64,000 nucleotides of DNA from Gammaproteobacteria bacterium. GTDB lineage: Bacteria > Pseudomonadota > Gammaproteobacteria > Eutrophobiales > Eutrophobiaceae. The position numbers and the translations under genes were made by a program. The stretch is taken from positions 1,408,001 to 1,472,000 of the forward strand of contig OZ250183.1 of NCBI GenBank assembly GCA_965238225.1. Reading direction: 5' to 3'. Positions 338 through 21,346 of this stretch are shown here, one piece after another; the stretch's first letter is position 1, and each line of letters opens with the position of its first letter. The notes below the pieces were generated by a model, which was not told where the DNA came from, ran no database searches, and saw only the letters and a program-made list of their open reading frames with translations.

Positions 338-3300
338 CTAAAACTCAAGACCAAGCTCTAAGTCAAAACTGTCGGTGTGCCCTGAGTCTATGATCTCAGT
401 GCGCTCATAGCCTACTGAACCATAAGCGCCGGTTTGGGATTTATATTCAACACCGATACCAAACTTCAAGTTGTGTGTGGCACTGCCGTCTGTAGACAGG
501 GTGTATATTTGTCTGGTTGGGTCGCTCAGGTAATAAAGTTCAGCGTCAGAGCTCGGACTTATATCAGCACCGTATTCAACCACACCGAAGGGTCTCAGTG
601 CGCCTTGATTAAGCTCAATGAGATAGTCTACATCAAGCCCTGTGTACAGCACTAGGTTATTTATATCTTGTTTGTTGTAAGTCAGTGCAAAGTCTGAACC
701 AGATTCAGCAAAGTCTCCCAGACTGCTGTATGACACATTAACCCTGCCATAGGGAGAGAGGTTTATATCCTTTTGTTGGAATTTACCTCTGAAGGTCAAG
801 GATGCAAATATTTGTTTTATGTCACGGCTGCCTGTGAGTAATATATTGTCATTGCCACGGCGTTTTGTATCTACATTAATGCCGCCTACACCTATCATAC
901 CTTCAATGGCAGTGTTGTTGTGCAAGTCTAGGGCAGTGTAGACCGCAAAGCTTATGGCATCTGAATTCAGTGTTGTGTCGTTATTGCCAATCTCAACATC
1001 ACCTGTACCTAAGCTTACGGCAACACCTAAAAGCTGTTTGTCATTGGCTGTATATCTGTCTACGCCTAAGGAGATGTTTTGTGAGAAGCTGTCCTGTGCA
1101 GATGTGGTGGTGGTTGCATCATAATCACCTAGGGTGATATTGCCGGCAGTCCAGATTGCCCAAGTATCACTAATACTATCACTGATGCTGTTACCGCTTA
1201 AGGGGTTTAGGGCAGTCAGATGGCCTAAAGTATTGTCTAAAGTATTGTGTGCCAGTTTGGCAAATTCATTGGCGGCACGGTCGCTAAGCTCTTGTTTGAG
1301 CGCAGCAAACACAGACGTGCTGTGGTCGGCGTTATGCTTGGTATTATTGGCCAGTGTTCTTGCCATGTTGGCAAGGCGTGCTTGGCTCACAAGGCTATTT
1401 TCTTTGGGATTATTGGCCTTATATTCTGCCTTAAAGAGTGCGTCCAGTGTCGGATGTGCAAAGTTTAAGGTTATGCCTTGATGAGACAGGTTGTTGCTGC
1501 CTTTGTGGCGGCGTAACCAGTTCATGCGGTTGGTAATGGTGGTTACTGAGGTCTTAGTCCAGTCGACTGCTATATCAGCTTGCATGTTAACACCAGACAC
1601 AACATCTTTAACTGTTGCAGGGTCAGGGGTGGGCGGTGTTGCTGATACGCTAAAGCTAAAAGTAGCTTGCGTGGCATCACGGCTTGCGCGGTCTACAAAT
1701 GCGCCTACTGGGATATTGACTGTGTATTCTGCACTCAGATCAAGATTGTTGGACGGGTTGATGGTGACAGCATCAGTATCATTGGCTGTGACTTGTGCAC
1801 CTGTCACATCAAGTGCTATGGCGGTGCCGCCTGTAGGGGTTAAGGTGATGGTACCTGTGCCGGCGCTGACTCGCTCACTGAAATTCAGGATAATATCAAC
1901 ATTGGCTGGCACCTCTGTGGCACTGTCTGTAAGTGCATAGCTTGTATTGTCTCTACCAAATGCGTAGGTAGTTAAGCTCGGACTGGTGGTATCAGCGGTG
2001 ACAGTCAAGACAGCATTCGATGGGCTGGAAACATTACCAGCGCGGTCTTGTACAAATAATCTATAAGTGCCACTGGCTTGTGGTGCGTAAATAGCAGTAG
2101 CATTGCCCGCAGCACGGGTGATGGTGGTGCCTTCTGTAAAGTTTTGCGTAGATTGCGGTGCAAACCAGATGATATCATCAGCATTACCAGAACCTACAAC
2201 AGTAATCGCTGCGTTAGCCATGCCACTGACCGCACTGGCAAAGACTGTGTCTTGATCGGTGGGGGTAGCCGCTGTGGCTGATGTACCAAAGCGAAGGACT
2301 TCCACTATAGATGTAAAAGCGTTGCCGGCAAGGTCAGAGAATAATGATCCGATACTTAATACAACATCTCTACCCGCAATAAAGTTGATGCTTGGATCGA
2401 TGGTCACTGTATTGCCAGCCACTGTGATGCGTGGGTCTGCGCTGAGAATGGTTTCAGCTATAGGTGTAAGACCTAATGATACGCCTGATTGAATTAGGAT
2501 ATCGCCGCCCGCCACTTTCATGACTGCCTCATTAAAGGTCAAGATAATATTGGCATTGGTGGCAGCATTTGTTACTGTTTCGCTCTCGGTAAATAGATAT
2601 TGCCTGCCATCTCCGATGGCATAGGAGACCAATGCTGGTCTTGTGCCGTCAATGGCGAGTTCGTTGCTGGTGGTGTCTGTGCCGATATTGCCAGTTGCAT
2701 CGGTGAATGTTGCACTAACCTCATAGCTGCCATCAGCAAGTGCATTGGCACTTGCCACTGTAAAAGACCAAGTGCCATCTGTAGCAACAGTGGGTGTGTA
2801 GGTAACAGCGTTTAGCGTCACAGAAAGGCTTTCTCCTGTGCCAAGTGCTATGCCTGTGTCTGTTGTGCCGGTGATGGTTGGGGTGGTGTCATTGGTGGCT
2901 AGTGCGTCAACTGTGGGTACAGGCGCTGTGTTGTCTATGGTAATGGTGGTCCCTGCGGTAGGGGTTGCGGTGATGGTGTTGCCTGCTAAGTCTGTGCCTG
3001 TGCTTAGGGTGAAGCTTTGTGCACCATCACCTGCGCCTACTGTCCAGTCATAGTTATAGGTTGTTGCATTGTGTTTTGTCATGTTGGCGGCAGCAATGTT
3101 CTCTACACCAGAGCCTGTGATTTGCATGACAGGGCTATCTGCCATGGGCTCGTCGAATTTGGCATTAACAATTATGGCATCCCCTGCTTTTACGACACTG
3201 ACAATGATATTACCGCCAGTTTGTTTCAAGTAATAGCGCAGGTAGGCTGTGGGGGCTGTATTGTCTACGCTTAAGGTGGCGGTTGATGGGCTAGAGACAT

Positions 3301-3508
3301 TGCCTACGCTGTCTTGTATAAATAATTTATAGTCGCCTGTGGTTGTGGGGGCTGTAATTGAAGTGGCAGTGCCTGTGGCACGGGTGATGGTGTTGCCTAT
3401 GACAAAGTTTGTGGTGCCTGCTGGGGCAAACCAAACGCTGTTACTTGCATCGCCCGAGCTTGTCGATGGGGACTGTCGCACTGCCGGCAACAGCCCTGCT
3501 GGTAGCAA
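338..3508 (-). CDS. Autotransporter adhesin, C-terminal part (Ig-like modules plus beta-barrel translocator); joins 3441..5819 across a 1-nt frameshift at ~3464
   Basis: Thr-rich Ig-like repeats, then amphipathic beta-strands ending FDLELGLEF (terminal Phe); no signal peptide of its own; the ORF begins in the middle of a repeat. Confidence 0.85.
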   Translation of the reverse strand: MLPAGLLPAVRQSPSTSSGDASNSVWFAPAGTTNFVIGNTITRATGTATSITAPTTTGDYKLFIQDSVGNVSSPSTATLSVDNTAPTAYLRYYLKQTGGNIIVSVVKAGDAIIVNAKFDEPMADSPVMQITGSGVENIAAANMTKHNATTYNYDWTVGAGDGAQSFTLSTGTDLAGNTITATPTAGTTITIDNTAPVPTVDALATNDTTPTITGTTDTGIALGTGESLSVTLNAVTYTPTVATDGTWSFTVASANALADGSYEVSATFTDATGNIGTDTTSNELAIDGTRPALVSYAIGDGRQYLFTESETVTNAATNANIILTFNEAVMKVAGGDILIQSGVSLGLTPIAETILSADPRITVAGNTVTIDPSINFIAGRDVVLSIGSLFSDLAGNAFTSIVEVLRFGTSATAATPTDQDTVFASAVSGMANAAITVVGSGNADDIIWFAPQSTQNFTEGTTITRAAGNATAIYAPQASGTYRLFVQDRAGNVSSPSNAVLTVTADTTSPSLTTYAFGRDNTSYALTDSATEVPANVDIILNFSERVSAGTGTITLTPTGGTAIALDVTGAQVTANDTDAVTINPSNNLDLSAEYTVNIPVGAFVDRASRDATQATFSFSVSATPPTPDPATVKDVVSGVNMQADIAVDWTKTSVTTITNRMNWLRRHKGSNNLSHQGITLNFAHPTLDALFKAEYKANNPKENSLVSQARLANMARTLANNTKHNADHSTSVFAALKQELSDRAANEFAKLAHNTLDNTLGHLTALNPLSGNSISDSISDTWAIWTAGNITLGDYDATTTTSAQDSFSQNISLGVDRYTANDKQLLGVAVSLGTGDVEIGNNDTTLNSDAISFAVYTALDLHNNTAIEGMIGVGGINVDTKRRGNDNILLTGSRDIKQIFASLTFRGKFQQKDINLSPYGRVNVSYSSLGDFAESGSDFALTYNKQDINNLVLYTGLDVDYLIELNQGALRPFGVVEYGADISPSSDAELYYLSDPTRQIYTLSTDGSATHNLKFGIGVEYKSQTGAYGSVGYERTEIIDSGHTDSFDLELGLEF

Positions 3509-5819
3509 AGACTGTGTTTTGATTGGTGGGCGCTTGTGTGTCTACGCTTAAGCTCGCGGTTGATGGGCTAGAGACATTACCTGCGCTGTCTTGTACAAAT
3601 AATTTATAGTCGCCTGCTGTTGCAGGGGCTGCAATTGAAGTGGCAGTGCCTGTGGCGCGGGTGATGGTGTTGCCTGCAACAAAGTTTGTGGTGCCTGTTG
3701 GGGCAAACCAAACGCTGTTACTGGCTACGCCTGAGCTTATGATGGGGACTGTCGCACTGCCGGCAACAGCCCTGATATTAGAATTAAAGACTGTGTTTTG
3801 ATTGCTGGGGCTTAAGTTGTCTACGGTGATGCTGGCACCAGATGTGGGGGTTGCGGTGACTGTATTGCCTGTTAAGTCTTGCCCTTGGCTTAAAGTGAAT
3901 GTTTGTGTGCCATCGCCAGTACCGACTGTCCAAGCATAGGTGTAGGTTGTTGCATTGACCCTTGTCATGGTGGCGGCAGAGACAGTATGTGCGCCAGTGC
4001 CGGCAATGCGCATGGCAGGGCTACCTTTCATAGACTCAGAAAAGGCAGCAGTGATGGTGATGTTGGTGCCTTGGTTTACCTGTGTGGCAGTATTAGTGCT
4101 TGTGCCATAGGTATAAGCAAGGGTGGCTGTGGGGGCTGTGTTGTCTACGATGATGCTGGCACCTGAGACAGGGGTCGCGGTGATGGTATTGCCTGCTAAG
4201 TCTGTGCCGTCGCTTAGGGTGAATGTTTGTGTGCCATCACCAGTACCGACTGTCCAAACATAGGTATAGCTTGTTGCATCAACCCTTGTCATGTTGGCGG
4301 CAGAGACAGTATGTGCACCAGTGCCTGTAATCTGCGGGATAGGGAATAATGCTATGTCCTCATTAAAGTCAGCAGTGATGGTGATGCTGGTGCCTTGGCT
4401 TACGCGTGTGGCAGTATTAGTGCTTGTACCATAGGCATAAGTAAGGATGGTTATCGGGCTTAGGTTGTCTACGGTTAAGGTGGCCGTTGATGGGCTAGAA
4501 ACATTGCCTACGCTGTCTTGTACAAATAATTTATAGTCGCCTGCTGTTGCAGGGGCTGTAATCGAAGTGGCAGTGCCGCTTGCAGCGCGGGTTATGGTGC
4601 TACTTGCACTAAAGTTTGTAGTGGTGGCTGGGGCAAACCAAACGCTGTTACTGGCTACGCCTGAGCTTATGATGGGGACTGTCGCACTGCCGGCAACAGC
4701 CCTGCTGGTAGCAAAGACTGTGTTTTGATTGGTGGGGGCTGTATTGTCTACAGTAATGCTGGCACCAGATGTGGGGGTTGCGGTGACTGTATTGCCTGTT
4801 AAGTCTTGCCCTTGGCTTAGAGTGAATGTTTGTGTGCCATCACCAGTACCGACTGTCCAAGCATAGGTATAGCTTGTTGCATTGACCCTTGTCATGTTGG
4901 TGGCAGAGACAGTATGTGCGCCAGTGCCGGCAATGCGCATGGCAGGGCTACCTTTCATAGACTCAGAAAAGGCAGCAGTGATGGTAATGCTATCTCCTGC
5001 TTTTACCCGTGTGGCAGTATTAGTGCTTGCGCCATAGGTATAAGCAAGGGTGGCTGTTGGGGCTGTGTTGTCTACGATGATGCTGGCACCTGAGACAGGG
5101 GTCGCGGTGATGGTATTGCCTGCTAAGTCTGTGCCGTCGCTTAGGGTGAATGTTTGTGTGCCATCATTTGCGCCTACTGTCCAAGCATAGGTATAGCTTG
5201 TTGCATCAACCCTTGTCATATCTGTTGCAGAGACAGTATGTGCGCCAGTGCCTGTAATCTGCGGGACAGGGAGTAATGCCATGTCCTCATTAAAGGTGGC
5301 GGTGATGGTGATGCTGGTGCCTTGGCTTACGCGCGTGGCAGTATTAGTACCCGTACCATAGGTATAAGCGAGGGTGGCTGTGGGGGTTGTGGTATCTATT
5401 GTAAGTGTTGCGTTGGTTGCACTGACAATGCCTCCTGCAAAGATTGTTGCAACGACTGCGTAAGTGCCTTCATTAAGTGCATTAAGAACCGCTACTTGCG
5501 CACGCCATGTGTTTGGGGTTACGCTGTTATCAATAACAGGTGTATTGGTAGCAACACCGTTTACCGTTACACCGACTAGTCCATCACCTGTCGCAAGTGT
5601 GCCGGTGATTGTTGGCGTTGTATCGTTGGTTGTTAGTGTATCAACCGTAATAGCTCGAGCCGCCTGTGCAGACAAAGCTGCAAGAAAAAAGACCAGCGCC
5701 AAGCGTTTTGTTAAGTTTATCATGCTGCCAAGACCCCCAAGCGTATTACTTGGAATCTTGTTTGTGGTGGTGCTTAATTTACCAATTAACTGCATAGGTT
5801 TACTCTTCAGTATTACCAT
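3441..5819 (-). CDS. Autotransporter adhesin, N-terminal part (signal peptide plus Ig-like repeats)
   Basis: Signal peptide KRLALVFFLAALSAQAARA; internal ~100-aa repeats; frame breaks at ATVPI where sibling repeats continue ATVPIISSG; alternative start ATG 5723. Confidence 0.85.
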   Translation of the reverse strand: MVILKSKPMQLIGKLSTTTNKIPSNTLGGLGSMINLTKRLALVFFLAALSAQAARAITVDTLTTNDTTPTITGTLATGDGLVGVTVNGVATNTPVIDNSVTPNTWRAQVAVLNALNEGTYAVVATIFAGGIVSATNATLTIDTTTPTATLAYTYGTGTNTATRVSQGTSITITATFNEDMALLPVPQITGTGAHTVSATDMTRVDATSYTYAWTVGANDGTQTFTLSDGTDLAGNTITATPVSGASIIVDNTAPTATLAYTYGASTNTATRVKAGDSITITAAFSESMKGSPAMRIAGTGAHTVSATNMTRVNATSYTYAWTVGTGDGTQTFTLSQGQDLTGNTVTATPTSGASITVDNTAPTNQNTVFATSRAVAGSATVPIISSGVASNSVWFAPATTTNFSASSTITRAASGTATSITAPATAGDYKLFVQDSVGNVSSPSTATLTVDNLSPITILTYAYGTSTNTATRVSQGTSITITADFNEDIALFPIPQITGTGAHTVSAANMTRVDATSYTYVWTVGTGDGTQTFTLSDGTDLAGNTITATPVSGASIIVDNTAPTATLAYTYGTSTNTATQVNQGTNITITAAFSESMKGSPAMRIAGTGAHTVSAATMTRVNATTYTYAWTVGTGDGTQTFTLSQGQDLTGNTVTATPTSGASITVDNLSPSNQNTVFNSNIRAVAGSATVPIISSGVASNSVWFAPTGTTNFVAGNTITRATGTATSIAAPATAGDYKLFVQDSAGNVSSPSTASLSVDTQAPTNQNTVFATSRAVAGSATVPIDKLGRCK

Positions 5820-5946: not shown

Positions 5947-6032
5947 CTAAAACTCCAAGGTCAACTTCTAAATCGAAACTGTCTGTATGTCTTGAGTTTA
6001 TGGCTTCAATACATGTAGCTTGCCGTGCCCAC
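5947..6032 (-). pseudogene. Relic of an autotransporter barrel C-terminus
   Basis: Translates IEAINSRHTDSFDLEVDL, then after 1 extra nt EF-stop; matches TEIIDSGHTDSFDLELGLEF-stop at 338..400. Confidence 0.75.
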
Positions 6033-6056: not shown

Positions 6057-9000
6057 TTATGTGTCGTACCGTCCTGCAAATGACTTGCAATTGTTTAAAT
6101 ACACTTCTATTGTGCCGCCGGATGTAGGTTCGCTCACCACCACATTGCCTGCTAAGTCTGTGCCTCGGCTTAGTGTGAATGTTTGTGTGCCACCATCAGT
6201 GTTCACCGCAGTCCAGAGATAGTAATAGGTTCTTACGTTGATAACTCTTGTCATGCTGGCAGCAGCAATGCTATCTACACCAGTGCCTGTAATTTGCGCG
6301 GTAGGGAATAATGCCATGTCCTCATTAAAGGTGGCGGTGATACGTACCACATCCCCTACGTTTACTCGAGTCACAGCCCTGTCATCTACAGAATAAGTGA
6401 GTACGGCAGTAGGAGACGTGGTATCTTTTACTGTAATTGTAGCACCAGATGTAGGTTCGCTAACTACCATATTACCAAATAAGTCCATGGCATGGCTTAG
6501 TGTAAATGCCTGTATGCCACCACCTGTGCCTACTGTCCATTCATAAATGAATGTTTGTATATAGGCGTAGGGCCATCTATCTAGATCTGCCCATGCCATG
6601 TTTGTTGCCGGAATGTTATTTGCACCAGTGCCTGTGATTTTTATGCCATCACTACCTTCCGTGATATCTACTACCAATTCACTGAAGGTAGCAACAACGG
6701 TGACGACATCCCCTGCTGTTACTTGACTTACAGGAGTACCATAGGGACCATCTATGAAATAACGGAGTCCAACTGTTGGGTTTGTAGTATCTTTTTTTGA
6801 ATTAAAGCCAAACGTTGTGAAGCCGAAAGAGTTGCCTGTAAGATCATCAAATGCTGTCGCTTGAATATTCACTTGAATATATTCACCATTCTGCCTATCA
6901 AAGGGGATTAATGGGTCAATGGTGAGTGTATTAGTACCATAACCTGTGATCTGTCTGACGGATGCGTTGAGGTCTTCGAGGGTGGGGGGATACTTCAAGT
7001 TCACTTCTCTCCTGCTGCTGTGAATAATATGGACATTACCTGAACCTTTGGCGACTGGCTCATCAAAGATCAGAACAATATTGTTGAATGCAGCAACACC
7101 TGTTGCACCATCTGCAGGTGAGTGTGATACAAGTGTCGGCGCTATGGTATCTATCATAAGTTCGTTTGTTGTAGTGTCTGCGCCAGTGTCACCTGCTGCA
7201 TCAGTGATTGTTGCAGTGATGTCGTAAGTGCCATCAGCAAGTGTATTGGCTGTCAAACTCCATGTGCCATCTGTAGCAACAGTGGGTGTATAGGAAACAG
7301 AGTATATTTCTACAGAAAGGGTTTCGCTTGAACTAAGTGCTGTGCCTGTGCCTGTAGTGCCTGTGATTGTTGGTGTTGGGTCATTGGTTTCTTGTGTATT
7401 AACCGTGGGTGTAGACTTAGCAGCATTATTATTCACTGTAATGGTGACACTAGATGTGGGTTCCATCACATTACCTGCTAAGTCTGTGCCTTGACTTAGT
7501 ATGAATTTTTGTTCGCCATGGGCATCACCTACTGTCCAAAAATAGTAATAGGTTGTTGCGTTGAATTTTGTCATGTTGGTGGTGGCAGTAGGATCTACGC
7601 CAGTACCTGTAATTTGCATGGCAGGCGTATCTGCTATGTCCTCACTAAACGTAGCATTGACAATGATGACATCCCCTGCTTTTACTTCAGTAAAACCGTA
7701 ACTAATGCCGTTTATTCTTTTGTAAGAACGGACATCGGCTGTAGGGGCTATGGTATCTTTTATGGTAAGTTCATTTGTTGTAGTGTCTGTGCTGATATTA
7801 CCTGCTGCATTTGTGATTGTTGCAATGACGTTATAGGTGCCATCAACAAGTGGTGTATTGGCTGTAAAAGACCATGTGCCATCTGTAGCAACAGTGGGTG
7901 TATAGCTTGTGCCATCTAACGCTACAGAAAGGGTTTCTCCTGTAGTAAGTGCTATGCCTGTGCCCGTAGTGCCTGTGATGACAGGGGTTGTGTCATTGCT
8001 GGTTTGTGCATTAACCGTGGGTGTCGCAGGGGCTATGTTATCCACTGTAATTGTGGCAGATGCAGGTGTTATTACATTGCCTGCTAAGTCTGTGCCTTGG
8101 CTTAAGCGAAATGTTTGTGTGCCATCACCTGTGCCTACTGTCCAAAAATAGCGAAAGGTTCTATTGCTATATCTTATCATATCGGTGGTAGCAATAAAAT
8201 TTACCCCCGTGCCTGTGATTTGTATGGGAGGACTATCTGCTATGTCCTTATTGAATTCGGCATTGATAATGATGACATCCCCTGCTTTTACCTTAGAAAA
8301 CTCGGTAAGACCGTAACTAATGCCGTTTATACTGAGGTAAGCATGAACATCGGCTGTAGGGGCTGTGGTGTCTATGGTAAGTTCGTTTGATGTAGTGTCT
8401 GTGCTGATATTGCCTGTTGCATCTGTGAATGTTGCAACGACTTCGTAGGTTCCGCTGGTAAGTGCATTAGCATTACTTACTGTAAAAGACCATGTGCCAT
8501 CTGTAGCAACAGTAGGTGTGTAGCTTGTGCCATCTAACGCTACAGAAAGGGTTTCTCCTGTAGTAAGTGCGCTACCTGTGCCTGTTGTGCCTGTGATGAT
8601 AGGGGTTGTGTCATTGCTGGTTTGTGCATTAACCGTGGGTGTCGTAACAGGGGCTGTGGTATCTACGGTAAGCTCGTTTGATGTAGTATCTGTGCTGACA
8701 TTGCCTGCTGTGTCTGTGGCTGTTGCAGTGATGTCGTAAGTACCATCAGCAAGTGTATTTGCTGTAAAGTGCCATGTGCCATCTGTAGCAACAGTGGCTG
8801 TGTAGGTTTCACCATTTAAGGCAACAGAGAGTGTCTCACCTGTAAGAAGTGCGCTACCTGTGCCTGTTGTGCCTGTGATGACAGGTGTGCTGTTGTTGCT
8901 GGTTTGTGCATTAACCGTGGGTGTCGCAGGCGCTATGGTATCTACTGTAAGTTCGTTTGATGTAGTGTCTGTGCTGATATTGCCTGCTGCATCTGTGAAT

Positions 9001-11364: not shown

Positions 11365-14300
11365 TTATGTGTCGTACCGTCCTGCAAATGACTTGCAATT
11401 GTTTAAATCCACTTCTATTGTGCCGCCGGATGTAGGTTCGCTCACCACCACATTGCCTGCTGAGTCTTCGCCTCGGCTTAGTGTAAATGTTTGTGTGCCG
11501 CCATCAGTGCTCACCACAGTCCAGAGATAGTAATAGGTTCTTGCATTGGCTCTTGTCATGCTGGCAGCAGCAATGCTATCTACACCAGTGCCTGTAATTT
11601 GCGCGGTAGGGAATAATGCCATGTCCTCATTAAAGGTGGCGGTGATACGTACCACATCCCCTACGTTTACTCGAGTCACAGGACTTCCATCTACGGTATA
11701 GGTGAGTTCGGCTGTGGGCGCTGTGCTATCCACTATAATTGTAGTAGATGTGGATGCCATTACATTGCCTGCTAAGTCTGTGCCTTGGCTTAGTGTAAAT
11801 GTTTGTGTGCCATCACCTGTGCTTGCTGTCCAGAAATAGTGAAAGGTTCTATTACTATCTCTTGTCATATTGGTGGCAGCAATGGGCTCTAAACCGGTAC
11901 CTGTGATTTGTATGGGGGGCGTATCTACTATGTCCTCATTGAAGGTAGCAATAACAATCATGTTATCTCCTTGTTTTACTTGGGTGACAACAACAGCAAT
12001 ACCATTAATGCTTTTGTAATAAGTGAGTGTAGCGGTAGGGGCTGTGGTGTCTACGGTAAGTTCGTTTGATGTAGTATCTGTGCTGACATTGCCTGCTGTA
12101 TCTGTGGCTGTTGCAATGACGTTATAGGTGCCATCAGCAAGTGTATTGGCTGTAAAAGACCATGTGCCATCTGTAGCAACAGTGGGTGTGTAGCTTGTGC
12201 CATCTAACGCTACAGAAAGGGTTTCGCTTAAGCTAAGTGCTGTGCTTGCGCCTATTGTGCCTGTGATTTCAGGGGTTGTGTCATTGCTGGTTAGTGTATT
12301 GACTGTAGGGGTAGCAGGGGCTGTGGTGTCTACGGTAAGTTCGTTTGATGTAGTATCTGTGCTGACATTGCCTGCTGTATCTGTGGCTGTTGCAATGACG
12401 TTATAGGTGCCATCAGCAAGTGTATTGGCTGTAAAAGACCATGTGCCATCTGTAGCAACAGTGGGTGTGTAGCTTGTGCCATCTAACGCTACAGAAAGGG
12501 TTTCGCTTAAGCTAAGTGCTGTGCTTGCGCCTATTGTGCCTGTGATTTCAGGGGTTGTGTCATTGCTGGTTAGTGTATTGACTGTAGGGGTAGCAGGGGC
12601 TGTGGTGTCTACGGTAAGTTCGTTTGATGTAGTATCTGTGCTGACATTGCCTGCTGTATCTGTGGCTGTTGCAATGACGTTATAGGTGCCATCAGCAAGT
12701 GTATTGGCTGTAAAAGACCATGTGCCATCTGTAGCAACAGTGGGTGTGTAGCTTGTGCCATCTAACGCTACAGAAAGGGTTTCGCTTAAGCTAAGTGCTG
12801 TGCTTGCGCCTATTGTGCCTGTGATTTCAGGGGTTGTGTCATTGCTGGTTAGTGTATTGACTGTAGGGGTAGCAGGGGCTGTGGTGTCTACGGTAAGTTC
12901 GTTTGATGTAGTATCTGTGCTGACATTGCCTGCTGTATCTGTGGCTGTTGCAATGACGTTATAGGTGCCATCAGCAAGTGTATTGGCTGTAAAAGACCAT
13001 GTGCCATCTGTAGCAACAGTGGGTGTGTAGCTTGTGCCATCTAACGCTACAGAAAGGGTTTCGCTTAAGCTAAGTGCTGTGCTTGCGCCTATTGTGCCTG
13101 TGATTTCAGGGGTTGTGTCATTGCTGGTTAGTGTATTGACTGTAGGGGTAGCAGGGGCTGTGGTGTCTACGGTAAGTTCGTTTGATGTAGTATCTGTGCT
13201 GACATTGCCTGCTGTATCTGTGGCTGTTGCAATGACGTTATAGGTGCCATCAGCAAGTGTATTGGCTGTAAAAGACCATGTGCCATCTGTAGCAACAGTG
13301 GGTGTGTAGCTTGTGCCATCTAACGCTACAGAAAGGGTTTCGCTTAAGCTAAGTGCTGTGCTTGCGCCTATTGTGCCTGTGATTTCAGGGGTTGTGTCAT
13401 TGCTGGTTAGTGTATTGACTGTAGGGGTAGCAGGGGCTGTGGTGTCTACGGTAAGTTCGTTTGATGTAGTATCTGTGCTGACATTGCCTGCTGTATCTGT
13501 GGCTGTTGCAATGACGTTATAGGTGCCATCAGCAAGTGTATTGGCTGTAAAAGACCATGTGCCATCTGTAGCAACAGTGGGTGTGTAGCTTGTGCCATCT
13601 AACGCTACAGAAAGGGTTTCGCTTAAGCTAAGTGCTGTGCTTGCGCCTATTGTGCCTGTGATTTCAGGGGTTGTGTCATTGCTGGTTAGTGTATTGACTG
13701 TAGGGGTAGCAGGGGCTGTGGTGTCTACGGTAAGTTCGTTTGATGTAGTATCTGTGCTGACATTGCCTGCTGTATCTGTGGCTGTTGCAATGACGTTATA
13801 GGTGCCATCAGCAAGTGTATTGGCTGTAAAAGACCATGTGCCATCTGTAGCAACAGTGGGTGTGTAGCTTGTGCCATCTAACGCTACAGAAAGGGTTTCG
13901 CTTAAGCTAAGTGCTGTGCTTGCGCCTATTGTGCCTGTGATTTCAGGGGTTGTGTCATTGCTGGTTAGTGTATTGACTGTAGGGGTAGCAGGGGCTGTGG
14001 TGTCTACGGTAAGTTCGTTTGATGTAGTATCTGTGCTGACATTGCCTGCTGTATCTGTGGCTGTTGCAATGACGTTATAGGTGCCATCAGCAAGTGTATT
14101 GGCTGTAAAAGACCATGTGCCATCTGTAGCAACAGTGGGTGTGTAGCTTGTGCCATCTAACGCTACAGAAAGGGTTTCGCTTAAGCTAAGTGCTGTGCTT
14201 GCGCCTATTGTGCCTGTGATTTCAGGGGTTGTGTCATTGCTGGTTAGTGTATTGACTGTAGGGGTAGCAGGGGCTGTGGTGTCTACGGTAAGTTCGTTTG

Positions 14301-14961
14301 ATGTAGTATCTGTGCTGACATTGCCTGCTGTATCTGTGGCTGTTGCAATGACGTTATAGGTGCCATCAGCAAGTGTATTGGCTGTAAAAGACCATGTGCC
14401 ATCTGTAGCAACAGTGGGTGCAACAGTGGTGTAGCTTGTGCCATCTAACGCTACAGAAAGGGTTTCGCTTAAGCTAAGTGCTGTGCTTGCGCCTATTGTG
14501 CCTGTGATTTCAGGGGTTGTGTCATTGCTGGTTAGTGTATTGACTGTAGGGGTAGCAGGGGCTGTGGTGTCTACGGTAAGTTCGTTTGATGTAGTATCTG
14601 TGCTGACATTGCCTGCTGTATCTGTGGCTGTTGCAATGACGTTATAGGTGCCATCAGCAAGTGTATTGGCTGTAAAAGACCATGTGCCATCTGTAGCAAC
14701 AGTGGGTGTGTAGCTTGTGCCATCTAACGCTACAGAAAGGGTTTCGCTTAAGCTAAGTGCTGTGCTTGCGCCTATTGTGCCTGTGATTTCAGGGGTTGTG
14801 TCATTGCTGGTTAGTGTATTGACTGTAGGGGTAGCAGGGGCTGTGGTGTCTACGGTAAGTTCGTTTGATGTAGTATCTGTGCTGACATTGCCTGCTGTAT
14901 CTGTGGCTGTTGCAATGACGTTATAGGTGCCATCAGCAAGTGTATTGGCTGTAAAAGACCA
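11365..14961 (-). CDS. Giant Ig-like repeat protein, C-terminal third (93-aa stalk repeats plus two B modules)
   Basis: The frame of ORF 11365..11961 stays open up to 14961; the repeats contain no Met, so the ORF track shows only the last 198 aa; same C-terminus as 6057..10853. Confidence 0.8.
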   Translation of the reverse strand, partial: WSFTANTLADGTYNVIATATDTAGNVSTDTTSNELTVDTTAPATPTVNTLTSNDTTPEITGTIGASTALSLSETLSVALDGTSYTPTVATDGTWSFTANTLADGTYNVIATATDTAGNVSTDTTSNELTVDTTAPATPTVNTLTSNDTTPEITGTIGASTALSLSETLSVALDGTSYTTVAPTVATDGTWSFTANTLADGTYNVIATATDTAGNVSTDTTSNELTVDTTAPATPTVNTLTSNDTTPEITGTIGASTALSLSETLSVALDGTSYTPTVATDGTWSFTANTLADGTYNVIATATDTAGNVSTDTTSNELTVDTTAPATPTVNTLTSNDTTPEITGTIGASTALSLSETLSVALDGTSYTPTVATDGTWSFTANTLADGTYNVIATATDTAGNVSTDTTSNELTVDTTAPATPTVNTLTSNDTTPEITGTIGASTALSLSETLSVALDGTSYTPTVATDGTWSFTANTLADGTYNVIATATDTAGNVSTDTTSNELTVDTTAPATPTVNTLTSNDTTPEITGTIGASTALSLSETLSVALDGTSYTPTVATDGTWSFTANTLADGTYNVIATATDTAGNVSTDTTSNELTVDTTAPATPTVNTLTSNDTTPEITGTIGASTALSLSETLSVALDGTSYTPTVATDGTWSFTANTLADGTYNVIATATDTAGNVSTDTTSNELTVDTTAPATPTVNTLTSNDTTPEITGTIGASTALSLSETLSVALDGTSYTPTVATDGTWSFTANTLADGTYNVIATATDTAGNVSTDTTSNELTVDTTAPATPTVNTLTSNDTTPEITGTIGASTALSLSETLSVALDGTSYTPTVATDGTWSFTANTLADGTYNVIATATDTAGNVSTDTTSNELTVDTTAPATPTVNTLTSNDTTPEITGTIGASTALSLSETLSVALDGTSYTPTVATDGTWSFTANTLADGTYNVIATATDTAGNVSTDTTSNELTVDTTAPTATLTYYKSINGIAVVVTQVKQGDNMIVIATFNEDIVDTPPIQITGTGLEPIAATNMTRDSNRTFHYFWTASTGDGTQTFTLSQGTDLAGNVMASTSTTIIVDSTAPTAELTYTVDGSPVTRVNVGDVVRITATFNEDMALFPTAQITGTGVDSIAAASMTRANARTYYYLWTVVSTDGGTQTFTLSRGEDSAGNVVVSEPTSGGTIEVDLNNCKSFAGRYDT

Positions 14962-15113
14962 TGGCCATCTGTAGCAACAGTGGGTGTGTAGCTTGTGCCA
15001 TCTAACGCTACAGAAAGGGTTTCGCTTAAGCTAAGTGCTGTGCTTGCGCCTATTGTGCCTGTGATTTCAGGGGTTGTGTCATTGCTGGTTAGTGTATTGA
15101 CTGTAGGGGTAGC
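12037..15113. repeat. Tandem array of 11 near-identical 279-bp units (93-aa Ig-like module)
   Basis: Unit AGGGGCTGTGGTGTCTACGGTAAG... recurs every 279 bp; the deviations seen are a 9-bp in-frame insertion (~14421) and a 1-bp deletion (~14963). Confidence 0.95.
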
Positions 15114-18100
15114 AGGGGCTGTGGTGTCTACGGTAATGGTGGTAGATGTAGGTGTTATTACATTACCTGCTAAGTCTTCGCCTTGGCTTAGTGTGAATGT
15201 TTGTGTGCCATCACCTGTGCCTGTTGTCCAGAAATAGTGAAAGGTTCTATTACTATCTCTTGTCATATTGGTGGCAGCAATGGGCTCTAAACCAGTGCCT
15301 GTGATTTGCACGGGAGGCGTATTTGCCATGTCCTCACTAAACTCAGCACTGATGATGATGACATCCCCTGCGTTTGCTTCAGTAATACCGTAACTAATGC
15401 CGTTTATTCTTTTGTAATAAGAAAGTTCGACAGTGGGGGCTGTGGTATCCACGGTAACGATAATAACAGTGCTTACGGGTACCACCGCATTACCTGCTAA
15501 GTCTTCGCCTTGGCTTAGTGTGAATGTTTGTGTGCGACCATCACCTATGCCTGCTGTCCAGAAATAGTGAAAGGTTCTATCACTATCTCTTGTCATATTG
15601 GTGGCAGCAATGGGCTCTAAACCAGTGCCTGTGATTTGCACGGGAGGCGTATTTGCCATGTCCTCACTAAACTCAGCACTGATGATGATGACATCCCCTG
15701 CGTTTGCTTCAGTAATACCGTAACTAATGCCGTTTATTCTTTTGTAATAAGAAAGTTCGACAGTGGGGGCTGTGGTATCCGCGGTAACGATAATAATAGT
15801 GCTTACGGGTACCACCGCATTACCTGCTAAGTCTTCGCCTTGGCTTAGTGTGAATGTTTGTGTGCGGCCATCACTTATGCTTGCTGTCCAGAAATAGTGA
15901 AAGGTTCTATTACTATCTCTTGTCATATTGGTGGCAGCAATGGGCTCTAAACCAGTGCCTGTGATTTGCACGGGAGGACTATTTGCCATGTCCTCACTAA
16001 ACTCAGCACTGATGATGATGACATCCCCTGCGTTTGCTTCAGTAATACCGTAACTAATGCCGTTTATTCTTTTGTAATAAGAAAGTTCGACAGTAGGGGC
16101 TGTGGTATCTATTATGGTAAGTTCGTTTGTTGTAGTGTCTGTACTGACATTGCCTGCTGCATCAGTAATTGTTGCAATGACGTTATGGATGCCACCGGTA
16201 AGTGGTGTATTGGCTGTAAAAGACCATGTGCCATCTGTAGCAACAGTGGGTGTGTAGGTTGTGCCATTTAAGGCAACAGAGAGTGTCTCACCTGTAAGAA
16301 GTGCGTTACCTGTGCCTGTTGTGCCTGTGATTACAGCAGGTGTGCTGGTGTTGCTGGTTAGTGTATTGACTGTGGGAGTCGCAGGGGCTGTGCTATCCAC
16401 TGTAATTGTAGCAGATGCGGGTTCCATCACATTGCCTGCTAAGTCTGTGCCGTTACTCAAAGAAAATGTTTGTATGCCATCACCAGTACCCACTGTCCAA
16501 GAATAGCGAAAGGTTCTATTGCTATATCTTATCATATCGGTGGTAGCAATAAAATTTACCCCCGTGCCTGTGATTTTCATGGGAGGACTATCTGCTATGT
16601 CCTCATTGAATTCGGTATTGATAATGATGACATCCCCTGCTTTTACCTTAGAAAACTCGGTAAGACCGTAACTAATGCCGTTTATACTGAGGTAAGAACG
16701 AACATCGGCTGTAGGGGCTGTGCTATCCACTGTAATTATAGTAGCTGTGGATGCCATCACATTGCCTGCTAAGTCTGTACCTTGGCTTAAGCGAAATGTT
16801 TGTATGCCATCACCTGTGCCTACTGTCCAGAAATAGTGAAAGGTTCTATTACTATCTCTTGTCATATTGGTGGCAGCAATAGGATCTACACCAGTACCTG
16901 TGATTTGTATGGGGGGCGTATCTCCTATGTCCTCATTGAATTCGGCACTGACAATGATGACATCCCCTACTTTTGCTTCGGTAAAACCATAACTAATGCC
17001 GTTTATTCTTTTGTAATAAGAAAGTTCGACAGTAGGGACTGTGGTGTCTACGGTAAGCTCGTTTGATGTAGTATCTGTGCTGACATTGCCTGCTGCATCT
17101 GTGGCTGTTGCAATGACGTTATAGGTGCCATCAGCAAGTGGTGTATTGGCTGTAAAAGACCATGTGCCATCTGTAGCAACAGTGGGTGTGTAGGTTGTAC
17201 CATTTAAGGCAACAGAGAGTGTCTCACCTGTAAGAAGTGCGTTACCTGTGCCTGTTGTGCCTGTGATTTGTGGTGTTGTGTCATTGCTGGTTAGTGTATT
17301 GACTGTAGGGGTAGCAGGGGCTGTGTTGTCTACGGTAATAGTGGTAGATGTAGGTGTTATTACATTACCTGCTAAGTCTGTGGCTTGGCTTAGTGTAAAT
17401 GTTTGTGTGCCATCGCCTGTGCCTACTGTCCATCTATGGTAATAGGTTATTGCATTGAATCTTGTCATGTTGGTGGTGGCGGTAGGATCTACGCCAGTGC
17501 CTGTGATTTGTATGGCAGGCGTATCTGCTATGTCCTCACTAAACGTAGCATTGACAATGATGACATCCCCTGCTTTTACCTTAGAAAACTCGGTAAGACC
17601 GTAACTAATGCCGTTTATACTGAGGTAAGAATGAACATCGGCTGTAGGGGCTGTGGTGTCTATGGTAAGTTCGTTTGATGTAGTGTCTGTGCTGATATTG
17701 CCTGCTGCATCTGTGAATGTTGCAACGACTTCGTAGGTTCCGCTGGTAAGTGCATTAGCATTACTTACTGTAAAAGACCATGTGCCATCTGTAGCAACAG
17801 TAGGTGTGTAGCTTGTGCCATCTAACGCTACAGAAAGGGTTTCTCCTGTAGTAAGTGCTATGCCTGTGCCTGTTGTGCCTGTGATGATAGGGGTTGTGTC
17901 ATTGCTGGTCAGTGTATTGACTGTAGGGGTAGCAGGGGCTGTGTTGTCTACGGTAATGGCAGCAGATGTAGATGCCATTACATTGCCTGCTAAGTCTGTG
18001 CCGTCGCTTAGTGTAAATGTTTGTGTGCCATCGCCTGTGCCTACTGTCCAAAAATAGTAATAGGTTATTGCATTGAATCTTGTCATGCTAGTTACAGCAA

Positions 18101-19121
18101 TGGGATCTACGCCAGTACCTGTGATCTGCATATGAGGCGTATATGCGATGTCCTCATTGAAGGTAGCAATAACAATCATGTTATCTCCTTGTTTTACTTG
18201 GGTGACAACAACAGCAATGCCATTAATGCTTTTGTAATAAGTGAGTGTAGCGGTAGGGGCTGTGGTATCTATGGTAAGTTCGTTTGATGTAGTGTCTGTA
18301 CTGACATTGCCTGCTGTGTCTGTGGCTGTTGCAATGACGTTATAGGTGCCACCAGTAAGTGCATTAGCATTACTTACTGTAAAAGACCATGTGCCATCTG
18401 TAGCAACAGTAGGTGTATAGGTTGTGCCATCTAACGCTACAGAAAAGGTTTCGCTTAAGCTAAGTGCTGTGCTTGTGCCTATTGTGCCTGTGATTTGTGG
18501 TGTTGTGTCATTGCTGGTTAGTGTATTGACTGTAGGGGTAGCAGGGGCTGTGTTGTCTACGGTAATGGCAGTAGATGTAGATGCCATTACATTGCCTGCT
18601 AAGTCTGTACCTTGGCTTAGTGTAAATGTTTGTGTGCCATCGCCTGTGCCTACTGTCAATCTATAGGTGTAGATTGTTGTATTGAATTTTGTCATGTTGG
18701 TGGCAGCAATGGGATTTACACCAGTACCTGTAATTTGCATGGCAGGCGTATCTGCTATAGGTTCGCTGAATCTAGCATGGACGATGACGGCATCCCCTGC
18801 TTTTACTGCAGGTATACGATAATTAGCTCCTATACGATAACTCATGCCGTTTACTCTTAGCCAAGAACGGACATCGGCTGTGGGGGCTGTGGTGTCTACG
18901 GTCAGCTCGTTTGATGTAGTGTCTGTGCTGACATTGCCTGCTGTGTCTGTGACTGTTGCAATGACGTTATAGGTGCCACCAGTAAGTGCATTAGCATTAC
19001 TTACTGTAAAAGACCATGTGCCATCTGTAGCAACAGTAGGTGTATAGGTTTCACCATTTAAGGCAACAGAGAGTGTCTCACCTGTAAGAAGTGTGCTACC
19101 TGTGCCTATTGTGCCTGTGAT
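14850..19121 (-). CDS. Giant Ig-like repeat protein, middle segment (alternating spacer and variable modules)
   Basis: ORF 14850..18845 extends in frame without stops to 19121; bounded by frameshifts at ~19122 and ~14963. Confidence 0.8.
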   Translation of the reverse strand: MTGTIGTGSTLLTGETLSVALNGETYTPTVATDGTWSFTVSNANALTGGTYNVIATVTDTAGNVSTDTTSNELTVDTTAPTADVRSWLRVNGMSYRIGANYRIPAVKAGDAVIVHARFSEPIADTPAMQITGTGVNPIAATNMTKFNTTIYTYRLTVGTGDGTQTFTLSQGTDLAGNVMASTSTAITVDNTAPATPTVNTLTSNDTTPQITGTIGTSTALSLSETFSVALDGTTYTPTVATDGTWSFTVSNANALTGGTYNVIATATDTAGNVSTDTTSNELTIDTTAPTATLTYYKSINGIAVVVTQVKQGDNMIVIATFNEDIAYTPHMQITGTGVDPIAVTSMTRFNAITYYYFWTVGTGDGTQTFTLSDGTDLAGNVMASTSAAITVDNTAPATPTVNTLTSNDTTPIITGTTGTGIALTTGETLSVALDGTSYTPTVATDGTWSFTVSNANALTSGTYEVVATFTDAAGNISTDTTSNELTIDTTAPTADVHSYLSINGISYGLTEFSKVKAGDVIIVNATFSEDIADTPAIQITGTGVDPTATTNMTRFNAITYYHRWTVGTGDGTQTFTLSQATDLAGNVITPTSTTITVDNTAPATPTVNTLTSNDTTPQITGTTGTGNALLTGETLSVALNGTTYTPTVATDGTWSFTANTPLADGTYNVIATATDAAGNVSTDTTSNELTVDTTVPTVELSYYKRINGISYGFTEAKVGDVIIVSAEFNEDIGDTPPIQITGTGVDPIAATNMTRDSNRTFHYFWTVGTGDGIQTFRLSQGTDLAGNVMASTATIITVDSTAPTADVRSYLSINGISYGLTEFSKVKAGDVIIINTEFNEDIADSPPMKITGTGVNFIATTDMIRYSNRTFRYSWTVGTGDGIQTFSLSNGTDLAGNVMEPASATITVDSTAPATPTVNTLTSNTSTPAVITGTTGTGNALLTGETLSVALNGTTYTPTVATDGTWSFTANTPLTGGIHNVIATITDAAGNVSTDTTTNELTIIDTTAPTVELSYYKRINGISYGITEANAGDVIIISAEFSEDMANSPPVQITGTGLEPIAATNMTRDSNRTFHYFWTASISDGRTQTFTLSQGEDLAGNAVVPVSTIIIVTADTTAPTVELSYYKRINGISYGITEANAGDVIIISAEFSEDMANTPPVQITGTGLEPIAATNMTRDSDRTFHYFWTAGIGDGRTQTFTLSQGEDLAGNAVVPVSTVIIVTVDTTAPTVELSYYKRINGISYGITEANAGDVIIISAEFSEDMANTPPVQITGTGLEPIAATNMTRDSNRTFHYFWTTGTGDGTQTFTLSQGEDLAGNVITPTSTTITVDTTAPATPTVNTLTSNDTTPEITGTIGASTALSLSETLSVALDGTSYTPTVATDGHGLLQPIHLLMAPITSLQQPQIQQAMSAQILHQTNLP
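15160..16109. repeat. About three tandem 330-bp copies of one variable B module
   Basis: VELSYYKRINGISYGITEANAGD...MTRDS(N/D)RTFHYFW repeats with a 330-bp period (antisense ORFs at 15306, 15636, 15966). Confidence 0.9.
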
Positions 19122-21346
19122 TTGATAGGGGTTGTGTCATTGCTGGTCAGTGTATTGACTGTAGGGGTAACAGGGGCTGTGTTGTCTACGGTAATGGCAG
19201 TAGATGTAGGTGTTATTACATTGCCTGCAAAGTCTGTGCCTTGGCTTAGTGTGAATGTTTGTGTGCCATCACCTGAGCCGACTTCCCAAAGATAGTAAGT
19301 GCGTCGATAGGAATCTTGTATCATTCTGCTTGTAGCGATGGTGTTTGCCCCTGTGCCTGTGATCTGCATGGGAGGGTCTCTTGTGATGTCCTCATTGAAG
19401 GTAGCAATAACAATCATGTTATCTCCTTGTTTTACTTGGGTGACAACAACAGCAGTGCCGTTAATGTGTTTGTAATAAATGAATGTAGCGGTAGGGGCTG
19501 TGGTATCTATGGTAAGTTCGTTTGATGTAGTATCTGTGCTGACATTGCCTGCTGTGTCTGTGGCTGTTGCAGTGACGTTATAGGTGCCACCAGTAAGTGG
19601 TGTATTGGCTGTAAAAGACCATGTGCCATCTGTAGCAACAGTGGGTGTGTAGCTTGTGCCATCTAACGCTACAGAAAAGGTTTCGCTTAAGCTAAGTGCT
19701 GTGCTTGTGCCTATTGTGCCTGTGATTTCAGGGGTTGTGTCATTGCTGGTTAGTGTATTGACTGTAGGGGTAGCAGGGGCTGTGGTGTCTACGGTCAGTT
19801 CGTTTGATGTAGTATCTGTGCTGACATTGCCTGCTGTGTCTGTGACTGTTGCAGTGATGTCGTAAGTGTCATCAGCAAGTGTATTGACTGTAAAAGACCA
19901 TGTGCCATCTGTAGCAACAGTAGGTGTATAGGTTTCACCATTTAAGGCAACAGAGAGTGTCTCACCTGTAAGAAGTGTGCTACCTGTGCCTATTGTGCCT
20001 GTGATTTGTGGTGTTGGGTCATTGCTGGTTAGTGTATTGACTGTAGGGGTAACAGGGGCTGTGTTGTCTACGGTAATGGCAGTAGATGTAGATGCCATTA
20101 CATTGCCTGCTAAGTCTGTGCCGCCGCTTAGTGTGAATGTTTGTGTGCCATCACCTGAGCCGACTTCCCAAAGATAGTAAGTGTGTCGATAGGAATCTTG
20201 TATCATCCTGCTTGTAGCGATGGTGTTTGCCCCTGTGCCTGTGATCTGCATGGGAGGGTCTCTTGCGATGTCCTCATTGAAAGTGACATCGACAATCATG
20301 TTATCTCCTTGTTTTACTTGGGTGACAACAACAGCAGTGCCGTTAATGTGTTTGTAATAAATGAATGTAGCGGTAGGGGCTGTGGTATCTATGGTAAGTT
20401 CGTTTGATGTAGTGTCTGTGCTGACATTGCCTGCTGTGTCTGTGGCTGTTGCAATGACGTTATAGGTGCCATCAGCAAGTGGTGTATTGGCTGTAAAAGA
20501 CCATGTGCCATCTGTAGCAACAGTGGGTGTATAGGTTTCACCATTTAAGGCAACAGAGAGTGTCTCACCTGTAAGTAGTGTGCTACCTGTGCCTATTGTG
20601 CCTGTGATTTCAGGGGTTGTGTCATTGCTGGTTAGTGTATTGACTGTAGGGGTAATAGGGGCTGTGGTGTCTATTATAAGTTCGTTTGATGTAGTGTCTG
20701 TACTTACATTGCCTGCTGTGTCTGTGGCTGTTGCAGTGATGTCGTAAGTACCATCAGCAAGTGTATTGGCTGTAAAAGACCATGTGCCATCTGTAGCAAC
20801 AGTAGGTGTATAGGTTTCACCATTTAAGGTAATAGAGAGTGTCTCACCTGTAAGAAGTGTGCTACCTGTGCCTGTTGTGCCTGTGATGACAGGGGTTGTG
20901 TCATTGCTGGTTTGTGTATTAATCGTGGGTGTAGTAACAGGGGTTATGCCTATCACTGTAATGGTGTTAGACGTGGTTTCGACAGTGTCCGTGCCTTGGT
21001 GGGTTAAAGTAAATGTTTGTATGCCAACAGCATCATCGTTGATGATCCATGAATAGTAATAGATCTCTCCGAACACTACACTAGAGTATCTCGTCATACT
21101 GGTTGCAGGAAAGCTATGTGCACCAGTACCCGTGATTTCTATGCTAGGATTATCTGCCCATACTATTCCTCCAAGGTCTGTGGCGATGATAAATACATTA
21201 TTCCCTGCTTCTACTTGAGTAACAGTCCGACCATTCATCAAATAAATGAGTGTAGCTTCGGGTGCTGCCTGTGCTACCTGTGCAGAAAATCCTGCAAGGA
21301 AAAAGACCAGTATGAGACGTTTTAGTAGATTAGCTTTGCCTAACAT
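19106..21346 (-). CDS. Giant Ig-like repeat protein, N-terminal segment with signal peptide
   Basis: MLGKANLLKRLILVFFLAGFSAQVAQA is near-identical to the start of 6057..10853; frame lost at NDTTPI due to 2 extra nt at ~19122. Confidence 0.85.
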   Translation of the reverse strand: MLGKANLLKRLILVFFLAGFSAQVAQAAPEATLIYLMNGRTVTQVEAGNNVFIIATDLGGIVWADNPSIEITGTGAHSFPATSMTRYSSVVFGEIYYYSWIINDDAVGIQTFTLTHQGTDTVETTSNTITVIGITPVTTPTINTQTSNDTTPVITGTTGTGSTLLTGETLSITLNGETYTPTVATDGTWSFTANTLADGTYDITATATDTAGNVSTDTTSNELIIDTTAPITPTVNTLTSNDTTPEITGTIGTGSTLLTGETLSVALNGETYTPTVATDGTWSFTANTPLADGTYNVIATATDTAGNVSTDTTSNELTIDTTAPTATFIYYKHINGTAVVVTQVKQGDNMIVDVTFNEDIARDPPMQITGTGANTIATSRMIQDSYRHTYYLWEVGSGDGTQTFTLSGGTDLAGNVMASTSTAITVDNTAPVTPTVNTLTSNDPTPQITGTIGTGSTLLTGETLSVALNGETYTPTVATDGTWSFTVNTLADDTYDITATVTDTAGNVSTDTTSNELTVDTTAPATPTVNTLTSNDTTPEITGTIGTSTALSLSETFSVALDGTSYTPTVATDGTWSFTANTPLTGGTYNVTATATDTAGNVSTDTTSNELTIDTTAPTATFIYYKHINGTAVVVTQVKQGDNMIVIATFNEDITRDPPMQITGTGANTIATSRMIQDSYRRTYYLWEVGSGDGTQTFTLSQGTDFAGNVITPTSTAITVDNTAPVTPTVNTLTSNDTTPIKSQAQ

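Follow-up and report, generated by a model that had tools for sequence, protein, structure and literature searches.

Mosaic immunoglobulin-like modules in a tandem family of putative type Va adhesins from a gammaproteobacterium

The window analysed here is a 64,000-nucleotide stretch of contig OZ250183.1 (GenBank assembly GCA_965238225.1, positions 1,408,001 to 1,472,000 of the forward strand) from a gammaproteobacterium of the family Eutrophobiaceae. Between positions 338 and 21346 all coding lies on the minus strand and comprises three genes, termed A, B and C, in six open frames rather than one protein. The genes contain 24 copies of an immunoglobulin (Ig)-like module, termed the B module, interleaved with spacer modules. 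The B modules are true mosaics at the nucleotide level. We consider it likely that these mosaics were produced by RecA-type recombination in a partly decaying type Va adhesin family, which is built as tandem paralogs with mosaic Ig modules; the RecA-type mechanism is proposed because no dedicated enzyme was found. An earlier note on this DNA had read the modules as an antibody-like repertoire reassorted by recombination. The recombination part is supported by the present analysis, whereas the antibody-like repertoire is not.

In the proposed scheme, the three genes would be tandem paralogs of long surface adhesins that are secreted by the classical (type Va) autotransporter route. Their passengers would form a string of β-sandwiches, in which rod-forming Big_13/Ca_tandemer spacers alternate with the ~106-residue B modules. 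The repeats share near-identity over tens to hundreds of bases, and general homologous recombination, through unequal crossing-over and gene conversion within and between paralogs, would swap parts of modules and leave mosaics. Constraint on the variable sheet face of the module would be weak, with diversifying selection perhaps acting in episodes, and the predicted exposed Tyr, Trp and Arg residues of this face make it a plausible ligand-binding or self-association surface. Part of the locus would meanwhile be decaying, by loss of the barrel from genes A and B in one shared deletion and by apparent frameshifts in genes A and C.

Mosaic organization of the B modules

The B modules and the genes that carry them are placed as follows.

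2942..21274, minus strand: 24 B modules, ~106 residues each, extracted as 318-nt stretches
11365..21346, minus strand: gene A, with a signal peptide, 13 B modules, Big_13/Ca_tandemer spacers and an array of 11 near-identical spacers, without a β-barrel
6057..10853, minus strand: gene B, an intact 1598-residue frame with a signal peptide, six B modules, seven Big_13 and two Big_5 domains
338..5819, minus strand: gene C, with a signal peptide, five B modules, one Big_13, Big_5 and a C-terminal autotransporter barrel

The earlier note had counted about 24 B modules in a fixed frame, and exactly 24 were recovered with the anchor I[TA]G[TS]G. Their low ends lie at 20957, 20066, 19184, 18555, 17946, 17328, 16725, 16395, 15786, 15456, 15126, 11728 and 11419, followed by 10449, 9516, 8040, 7434, 6459, 6114, 5079, 4755, 4152, 3828 and 2942. 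The fixed frame is equally evident, with ten invariant columns (G26, I47, G49, G51, M60, G79, Q81, F83, L85 and D90) and seven nearly invariant ones. All alleles quoted for the two variable segments are present, and each quoted pairing of a first with a second segment was found in its place: KSING+FNA is anchored at 18125, KSING+DSNR at 11907, KRING+FNA at 7613, KRING+DSNR at 16904, LSING+FNA at 17507, and LSING+YSNR at both 16574 and 8219.

Recombination or gene conversion among the modules, as the note had claimed, is statistically strong in the pairwise homoplasy index (PHI), four-gamete and copying-model analyses, which were run with our own scripts, as were the Nei-Gojobori estimates given below. 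For 13 core modules, none of 1000 permutations gave a PHI value at or below that observed, for all sites and for third codon positions alike, and the minimum number of recombination events (Rmin) was 39. The corresponding counts for all 24 modules were 2/1000 at all sites and 0/1000 at third positions. Extended to all 49 modules of the genome, the test was not significant at all sites (192/1000) and gave 0/1000 at third positions.

When each switch was charged six mismatches, the copying model best explained 6 of the 13 core modules as two to four blocks, and the nine inferred breakpoints are scattered over alignment columns 8, 33, 33, 44, 45, 53, 103, 109 and 126. The 5′ block of module 11728 differs from module 17946 by a single mismatch in 108 nt, at an overall identity of 87%, and its remaining blocks are closest to module 16725. 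Similarly, 186 nt of module 15126 are identical to the module at 15453, after which the identity to the best partner is 88%. Altogether, the mosaic blocks lie 1 to 25 mismatches from their nearest donor, which makes chimeras of the assembler unlikely and many of the exchanges old.

Mis-joined or poorly polished repeats could in principle also yield mosaics and frameshifts, since the region is highly repetitive and the frameshifts fall within repeats; we regard such an artefact as very improbable. A chimera introduced by an assembler would equal both of its parents, in contrast to the mismatched blocks seen here, and the genome is a single complete contig. Words sampled from the stretch were recovered in two sequencing runs of one sample, at fractions of 0.52 and 0.40, and no RNA run is listed as containing them. 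Contigs from the two runs cover 30 of 30 bins of 14800-21400 at an identity of at least 97% with no inserted or missing letters listed, which is weak evidence against an artefact as it comes from one sample, perhaps the source of the assembly. The run contigs, at most 230 nt long among the pieces shown, are too short to phase segment 1 with segment 2 or to count repeats and lose rare variants, and the one joint among them, from 15038 to 20876 with a side of 21, is too short to trust.

Reassortment of the two segments, which had been called combinatorial, turned out to be limited. Grouping 48 modules (one truncated module was dropped) at 70% identity gave 16 classes of segment 1 and 11 of segment 2, of which 20 of the 176 possible pairings occur; just three segment-1 classes, namely KR, LS and KS/KH, have more than one partner. 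The units of exchange are blocks of the module, as segment 1 usually moves together with the strand after it and segment 2 with the strand before it. At the two other large loci a single type predominates, in which WLRVNG... is paired with FNATTYTYRW. Of seven modules from five close public relatives, six have the pairing class found here.

The statement that the window holds neither a reverse transcriptase nor a site-specific recombinase was borne out. A search with RVT_1 gave no match in the complete single-contig genome of 1.72 Mb (the control was positive in 3 of 14 named genomes), which rules out a diversity-generating retroelement. Programmed site-specific recombination was likewise rejected as a candidate, because the 30 non-adhesin open reading frames (ORFs) of at least 150 residues in the window include no recombinase, integrase or transposase, the housekeeping RecR being the only related entry.

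Variable positions, predicted fold and selection

Variation is indeed higher in the two segments that had been described as hypervariable, with a mean column entropy of 1.77 bits in segments 1 and 2 against 1.13 elsewhere (Mann-Whitney p = 7.5e-5). It is not confined to them, however, since just 13 of the 25 most variable positions fall inside the segments, and the remaining 12 belong to strand B, the B-C and C-C′ loops and the tail. Of the residues in segments 1 and 2, 16.3% are Tyr, compared to 0.1% in the rest, and aromatic residues and Arg dominate the variable positions of the B modules.

The AlphaFold2 model of the B module, calculated from the alignment of the 24 modules, is an all-β Ig-like sandwich with a predicted local distance difference test (pLDDT) score of 94.8. 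Its strands span residues 5-13, 16-19, 28-35, 46-51, 55-59, 61-64, 67-73, 79-85, 88-90 and 99-105. Segment 1 corresponds to strand A and a hairpin, and segment 2 to the D-E hairpin, both being largely strand in the model. Conserved positions, which are mostly hydrophobic or aromatic (5, 7 and 9; 29, 31, 33 and 35; 68, 70 and 72), alternate along strands A, B, D and E with variable ones (6, 8, 10 and 12; 32 and 34; 63 and 65; 69 and 71), numbered as in module 17946-18263. By contrast, strands C and F are near-invariant, with mean entropies of 0.33 and 0.42 bits, respectively. In the canonical Ig topology, strands A, B, E and D form one sheet. Given this topology and the strand order of the model, we infer that the variable residues would lie on the exposed face of the A/B/E/D sheet and not in tip loops. 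The analogy to an antibody paratope is thus not supported, as the variable residues appear to sit mainly at alternate strand positions and not in loops resembling complementarity-determining regions.

The B module folds confidently in prediction and is an uncatalogued Ig-like domain worth curating as a family. None of the 24 modules has a significant Pfam match in a per-module scan, the best E-values being 0.0024 for Big_13 (5/24), 0.0055 for Big_5 (2/24) and 0.02 for Big_12 (3/24), and scans of the whole proteins with Pfam and NCBIfam placed no family on the B-module stretches. The module thus shares the generic Ig-like sandwich of the Pfam E-set families Big_12, Big_5 and Big_13, but stays below significance for every one of them. 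A search of the PDB with the module profile returned only two chains, at E-values of 0.58 and 0.79, and Foldseek found no PDB match at E ≤ 0.001. Superposition using VIA-align gave Z scores of 8-10 to many unrelated Ig-like domains, including those of S-layer proteins, invasin, intimin and macroglobulin, among which no family stands out. Comparison of the module profile to the Big_5 domain of gene B by hhalign gave a probability of 1.4%.

Similar domains occur more widely in public data. Among ESM Atlas clusters with an assigned family, the nearest have Big_12, which is present in 11-100% of the members. When 1.84 billion representatives were searched with the module profile, 987 proteins scored E ≤ 0.001, of which 82 reached E ≤ 1e-30, and six of the best 150 of the 987 come from this genome itself. 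Across 610 related domains the best-conserved feature is a D-x-x-G-N motif near the end, and segment 1 could be aligned in just 28%. Nine related public proteins were scanned, seven of which have Pfam families at E ≤ 1e-5, including type IX secretion system (T9SS) tails, SLH domains and Big_12. A search for related loci with a single module gave seven loci, the best being in metagenome-assembled genomes labelled Lacinutrix (54% identity) and Colwellia (55% identity).

Selection was assessed from the ratio of nonsynonymous to synonymous divergence (dN/dS). In the pooled Nei-Gojobori analysis, dS is 0.34-1.09 and similar across module regions, the frame being about as high as the segments. The pooled dN/dS is 0.55-1.09 for segment 1, 0.75-0.87 for segment 2 and 0.73-1.18 for the B-C loop, compared to 0.36-0.61 in the other regions of the frame, where values well below 1 indicate past purifying selection. 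For individual clades, dN/dS over segments 1 and 2 is as follows.

W-type clade, 12 modules: 2.68 (bootstrap 0.87-16.3; rest of module 0.47)
N-terminal type clade, 6 modules: 1.35
KR/KS/KH/LS clade, 12 modules: 0.66
T-type clade (gene C), 7 modules: 0.30

The W-type modules, mostly at loci outside the window, exceed 1 in 96% of bootstrap replicates. The nonsynonymous excess proposed for the segments is therefore not consistent and is hinted at in one clade only.

These results bear on whether the locus is a dedicated repertoire system. The B modules would then be putative binding units with a paratope-like face, genes A and B would serve as donor archives for the barrel-bearing paralogs, and the system would work by analogy to the pilS/pilE, vls or msp2 cassettes, or to the reassortment of the hypervariable regions HV1 and HV2 of Opa. 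Two segment-1 and two segment-2 classes do occur in all four pairings, the variable positions are rich in aromatic and Arg residues, long open frames are kept in genes A and B despite the missing barrel, and the segments of the W-type modules reach the dN/dS of 2.68. The module is also hugely expanded, with 49 copies in 1.72 Mb compared to none in 40 genomes of relatives (10 congeners included) or in 299 scored genomes of the same class (one further genome was unscored). Nevertheless, we judge such a system unlikely. Unlike promoterless silent cassettes, genes A and B each possess a start codon and a signal peptide, and their 5′ regions are shared with other loci. The modules of gene C are of the T-type, unlike the reassorted types of A and B, and with their low dN/dS they reveal no visible flow from A or B into C. 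The few segment-1 classes with several partners and the stable pairings in close relatives also argue against it, and most mosaic blocks lie 7-25 mismatches from the nearest donor, so that those exchanges must be old. Together, limited pairing, the lack of a consistent dN/dS excess, two barrel-less genes and apparent frameshifts in two leave the idea of a binding repertoire on antibody-like surfaces without support.

A narrower form of this idea takes the B module as a natural sheet-face binder scaffold, with about 50 versions renewed by segmental gene conversion and genes A and B as donor archives. Tyr, Trp and Arg on strands A, B, D and E would then form a flat variable paratope, and the opposite sheet would be constant. 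We give this only a slim chance; if true, it would represent cassette-type diversification inside the tandem Ig modules of a non-pathogen.

Gene layout, paralogs and decay of the locus

Further features of the three genes, all on the minus strand, are listed below.

404..1156, minus strand: autotransporter β-domain (type Va barrel) of gene C, PF03797, E = 9.1e-30, profile positions 1-255 of 255
12037..15136, minus strand: array of a 279-bp spacer (Big_13) unit in gene A, 11.1 copies at 99% identity (Tandem Repeats Finder)
11263..11349, minus strand: barrel remnant of the last ~29 codons, 3′ of the gene A stop; aligns locally with the terminus of gene C at a score of 58
5957..6007, minus strand: barrel remnant of the last ~17 codons, 3′ of the gene B stop in another frame; score 59
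19125..19126, minus strand: apparent frameshift 1 of gene A, where the TTP(Q/I)ITGT motif contains the two extra bases AT
14963..14964, minus strand: apparent frameshift 2 of gene A, where the final unit of the array is one base short in its DGTWSF codons
3458..3470, minus strand: apparent frameshift of gene C, where the VPIISSG codons contain one base too many

Gene A is spread over three frames (19106-21346, 14850-19136 and 11365-15030), on which Pfam identifies Big_13, Big_3_3 and Big_6 but no Autotransporter domain. Gene B has a Ca_tandemer match at 3e-76, lacks a β-barrel and ends at its C-terminus in the same way as gene A. Gene C occupies two frames, 3441-5819 and 338-3541, and its barrel corresponds to residues 796-1046 of the latter; the mark of a type Va autotransporter, a C-terminal PF03797 barrel, is found in gene C only among the three. 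All three genes begin with a signal-peptide-like N-terminus, as read from the translations, in which a hydrophobic core is followed by AQA or ARA. The passenger between signal peptide and barrel is Ig-like and not β-helical. In addition, gene C contains a second uncatalogued module of ~90 residues in about five copies (NQNTVF...SNSVWFAP...GDYKLFVQDS.GNVS), distributed over its two frames, for which the sole Pfam matches are weak ones to BiPBP_C (E = 0.0079) in parts of two copies.

The spacers carry Big_13, Big_3_3, Big_6 and Ca_tandemer in the Pfam and NCBIfam scans, with Big_5 on a few other modules. The earlier description of the spacers as barely varying is true of the 279-bp array only. 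Elsewhere they do vary: 27 spacers were counted in the window and 26 extracted, which comprise 18 distinct sequences with a mean pairwise identity of 74%, compared to 48% for the B modules. Within the array, one copy has a 9-nt insertion and the last copy a 1-nt deletion. The insertion is in frame and lies in the third unit in reading order (14403 region), which reads SYTTVAPTVATDG in place of SYTPTVATDG.

The C-terminal ends of genes A and B both read '...TIEV(D/Y)LNNCKSFAGRYDT*', and from just before each stop the two genes are 94.7-94.8% identical over the first 171-173 nt. The near-identical ends, together with the barrel remnants behind the stops, mark both genes as copies of one barrel-less deletion derivative. 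According to these alignments, the deletion that removed the anchor is shared and predates the duplication of A and B.

Genome-wide, hmmsearch detected 49 B modules at five loci, and an alignment-based search of the genome gave 51 matches; the barrel of the adhesin family is present in six copies and one fragment. Tracts of kilobases are shared between loci at 88-96% identity. Over 4483 nt, gene C matches a paralog at genome positions 1034329-1038800 with 94.5% identity, and this paralog has one open frame of 1653 residues. The 5′ end of gene B and its upstream DNA share 96% identity over 2 kb with another locus, and the 5′ end of gene A shares 95.6% over 776 nt with another locus. Three barrel-bearing paralogs are single open frames from a signal-peptide-like start to the end of the barrel, and two further paralogous loci are split into frames. 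The paralog at C1:1568528-1574353 has eight B modules and a C-terminal domain unrelated to the barrel, of which the last 120 residues look, from their sequence, like a GH16/concanavalin-type jelly roll.

The broken copies could point to neutral decay, whereby a shrinking genome is losing the family, the variation is pseudogene drift and the mosaics are incidental. This would fit the barrel deletions, the three apparent frameshifts of genes A and C, a paralogous locus (1102987-1113495) that is broken into at least six frames, and the genome size of 1.72 Mb, against 1.3-2.7 Mb in the ten congeners searched. Such wholesale drift seems improbable, since a dN/dS of 0.36-0.54 in frame regions and the strictly conserved core indicate that most of the divergence accumulated under purifying selection. 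In addition, strands C and F are almost without variation, and three barrel-bearing paralogs are still open. For the frameshifts themselves, an assembly error finds some support in P0047, a public representative of 224 residues that is 90% identical to gene A around module 19184 and has TTPIITGT in frame at frameshift 1. No homopolymer lies at any of the three frame breaks. P0047 is itself cut on both sides by other frameshifts, which reflects either indel errors in one record or copies decaying independently.

Several points weigh against recombination in a partly decaying adhesin family under weak constraint, the explanation we prefer. A surface that is simply unconstrained would not usually be so enriched in exposed Tyr, Trp and Arg, and the dN/dS of the W-type clade may mean that selection for change is more than episodic. 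The placement of the variable residues on a single face draws solely on the modelled strand order and the canonical topology. The apparent frameshifts could be assembly errors, in which case genes A and C would be less decayed. Moreover, with gene B intact and the dN/dS of the frame regions low, the barrel-less genes may still do something.

Comparison with known systems and neighbouring genes

The stalk part of these proteins fits the Periscope and fibrillar-adhesin class. Periscope proteins have tandem repeats longer than 50 residues whose units are highly identical in DNA, and Big_13 (PF19077) is among the families defined from this class (Whelan 2022, PMC9704523); a related source on fibrillar adhesins is Monzon et al. 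2021 (PMC8286594). Periscope proteins are further marked by a repeat number that differs between closely related strains. As in that class, the genes here encode long surface proteins of tandem Ig-like repeats; one array comprises 11.1 units at 99% identity, and Big_13 occurs on all three genes. They differ in that variable uncatalogued modules are interleaved along the stalk, compared to the single distal adhesive domain of the class, and in that the gene with the long array (gene A) lacks an anchor.

The Opa proteins of Neisseria resemble the B modules in that a conserved scaffold carries two hypervariable regions, and also in their several paralogous loci and recombinant pairings, few of which are seen: 20 of 176 here, and 124 of 7068 possible HV1/HV2 pairings in Opa (PMC2265424). 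Opa, however, is an eight-stranded outer-membrane barrel with variable loops, identified receptors and phase variation, studied at the population level, whereas the B module is a soluble Ig-like module in tandem, with its variable residues mostly on strands, from one genome.

Silent-cassette systems such as pilE/pilS, vlsE, msp2 and mgpB/MgPar operate by gene conversion and give rise to new variants within a clonal population. They share with the present locus truncated, non-functional-looking copies beside functional ones and segmental mosaics. Here, by contrast, genes A and B each retain a start and a signal peptide, and several barrel-bearing paralogs exist with no single expression site evident; silent-cassette antigenic variation was accordingly rejected, as its defining promoterless partial donors and one expression site were not found. 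Diversity-generating retroelements act on Ig-like or C-type-lectin targets and likewise localize hypervariability in a binding scaffold. They differ from the B modules, in which blocks are shared between copies, not point changes against a template, and which come without a reverse transcriptase. Overall, the locus represents no new mechanism of diversity generation but a known route of bacterial surface-protein evolution. Its value lies in being a clean, quantified example of intragenic and inter-paralog recombination that builds mosaic Ig modules in an adhesin family, with two genes caught after the shared loss of their membrane anchor. The combination of a near-invariant sheet and a putative variable, aromatic-rich face would also be of interest for the engineering of non-antibody binders, if a ligand is found.

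The neighbouring genes are housekeeping ones, namely rnr, purA, a hisS-like gene, hflKC, hflX, miaA and amiB, in addition to a gene directly upstream of the adhesin genes (21670-24063, minus strand). The latter encodes a protein of 797 residues with a right-handed β-helix, a GH141-like insertion and a C-terminal F5/8 type C (discoidin) domain, by which it is probably a secreted glycan-binding or glycan-cleaving protein. The frame at 45849-48083 on the plus strand encodes a fusion protein of 744 residues, in which an Mrr-like restriction nuclease domain is joined to a ResIII/DEAD helicase and an HA domain. Finally, the putative promoter region of gene A contains about seven copies of an 8-bp unit (AACTATAC, plus strand) at 21516-21574, about 170-230 bp upstream of the gene A start, and these short tandem repeats could act as an expression switch by slippage. 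Intergenic DNA similar to this repeat region recurs at 24169-24308 and 24731-24891.

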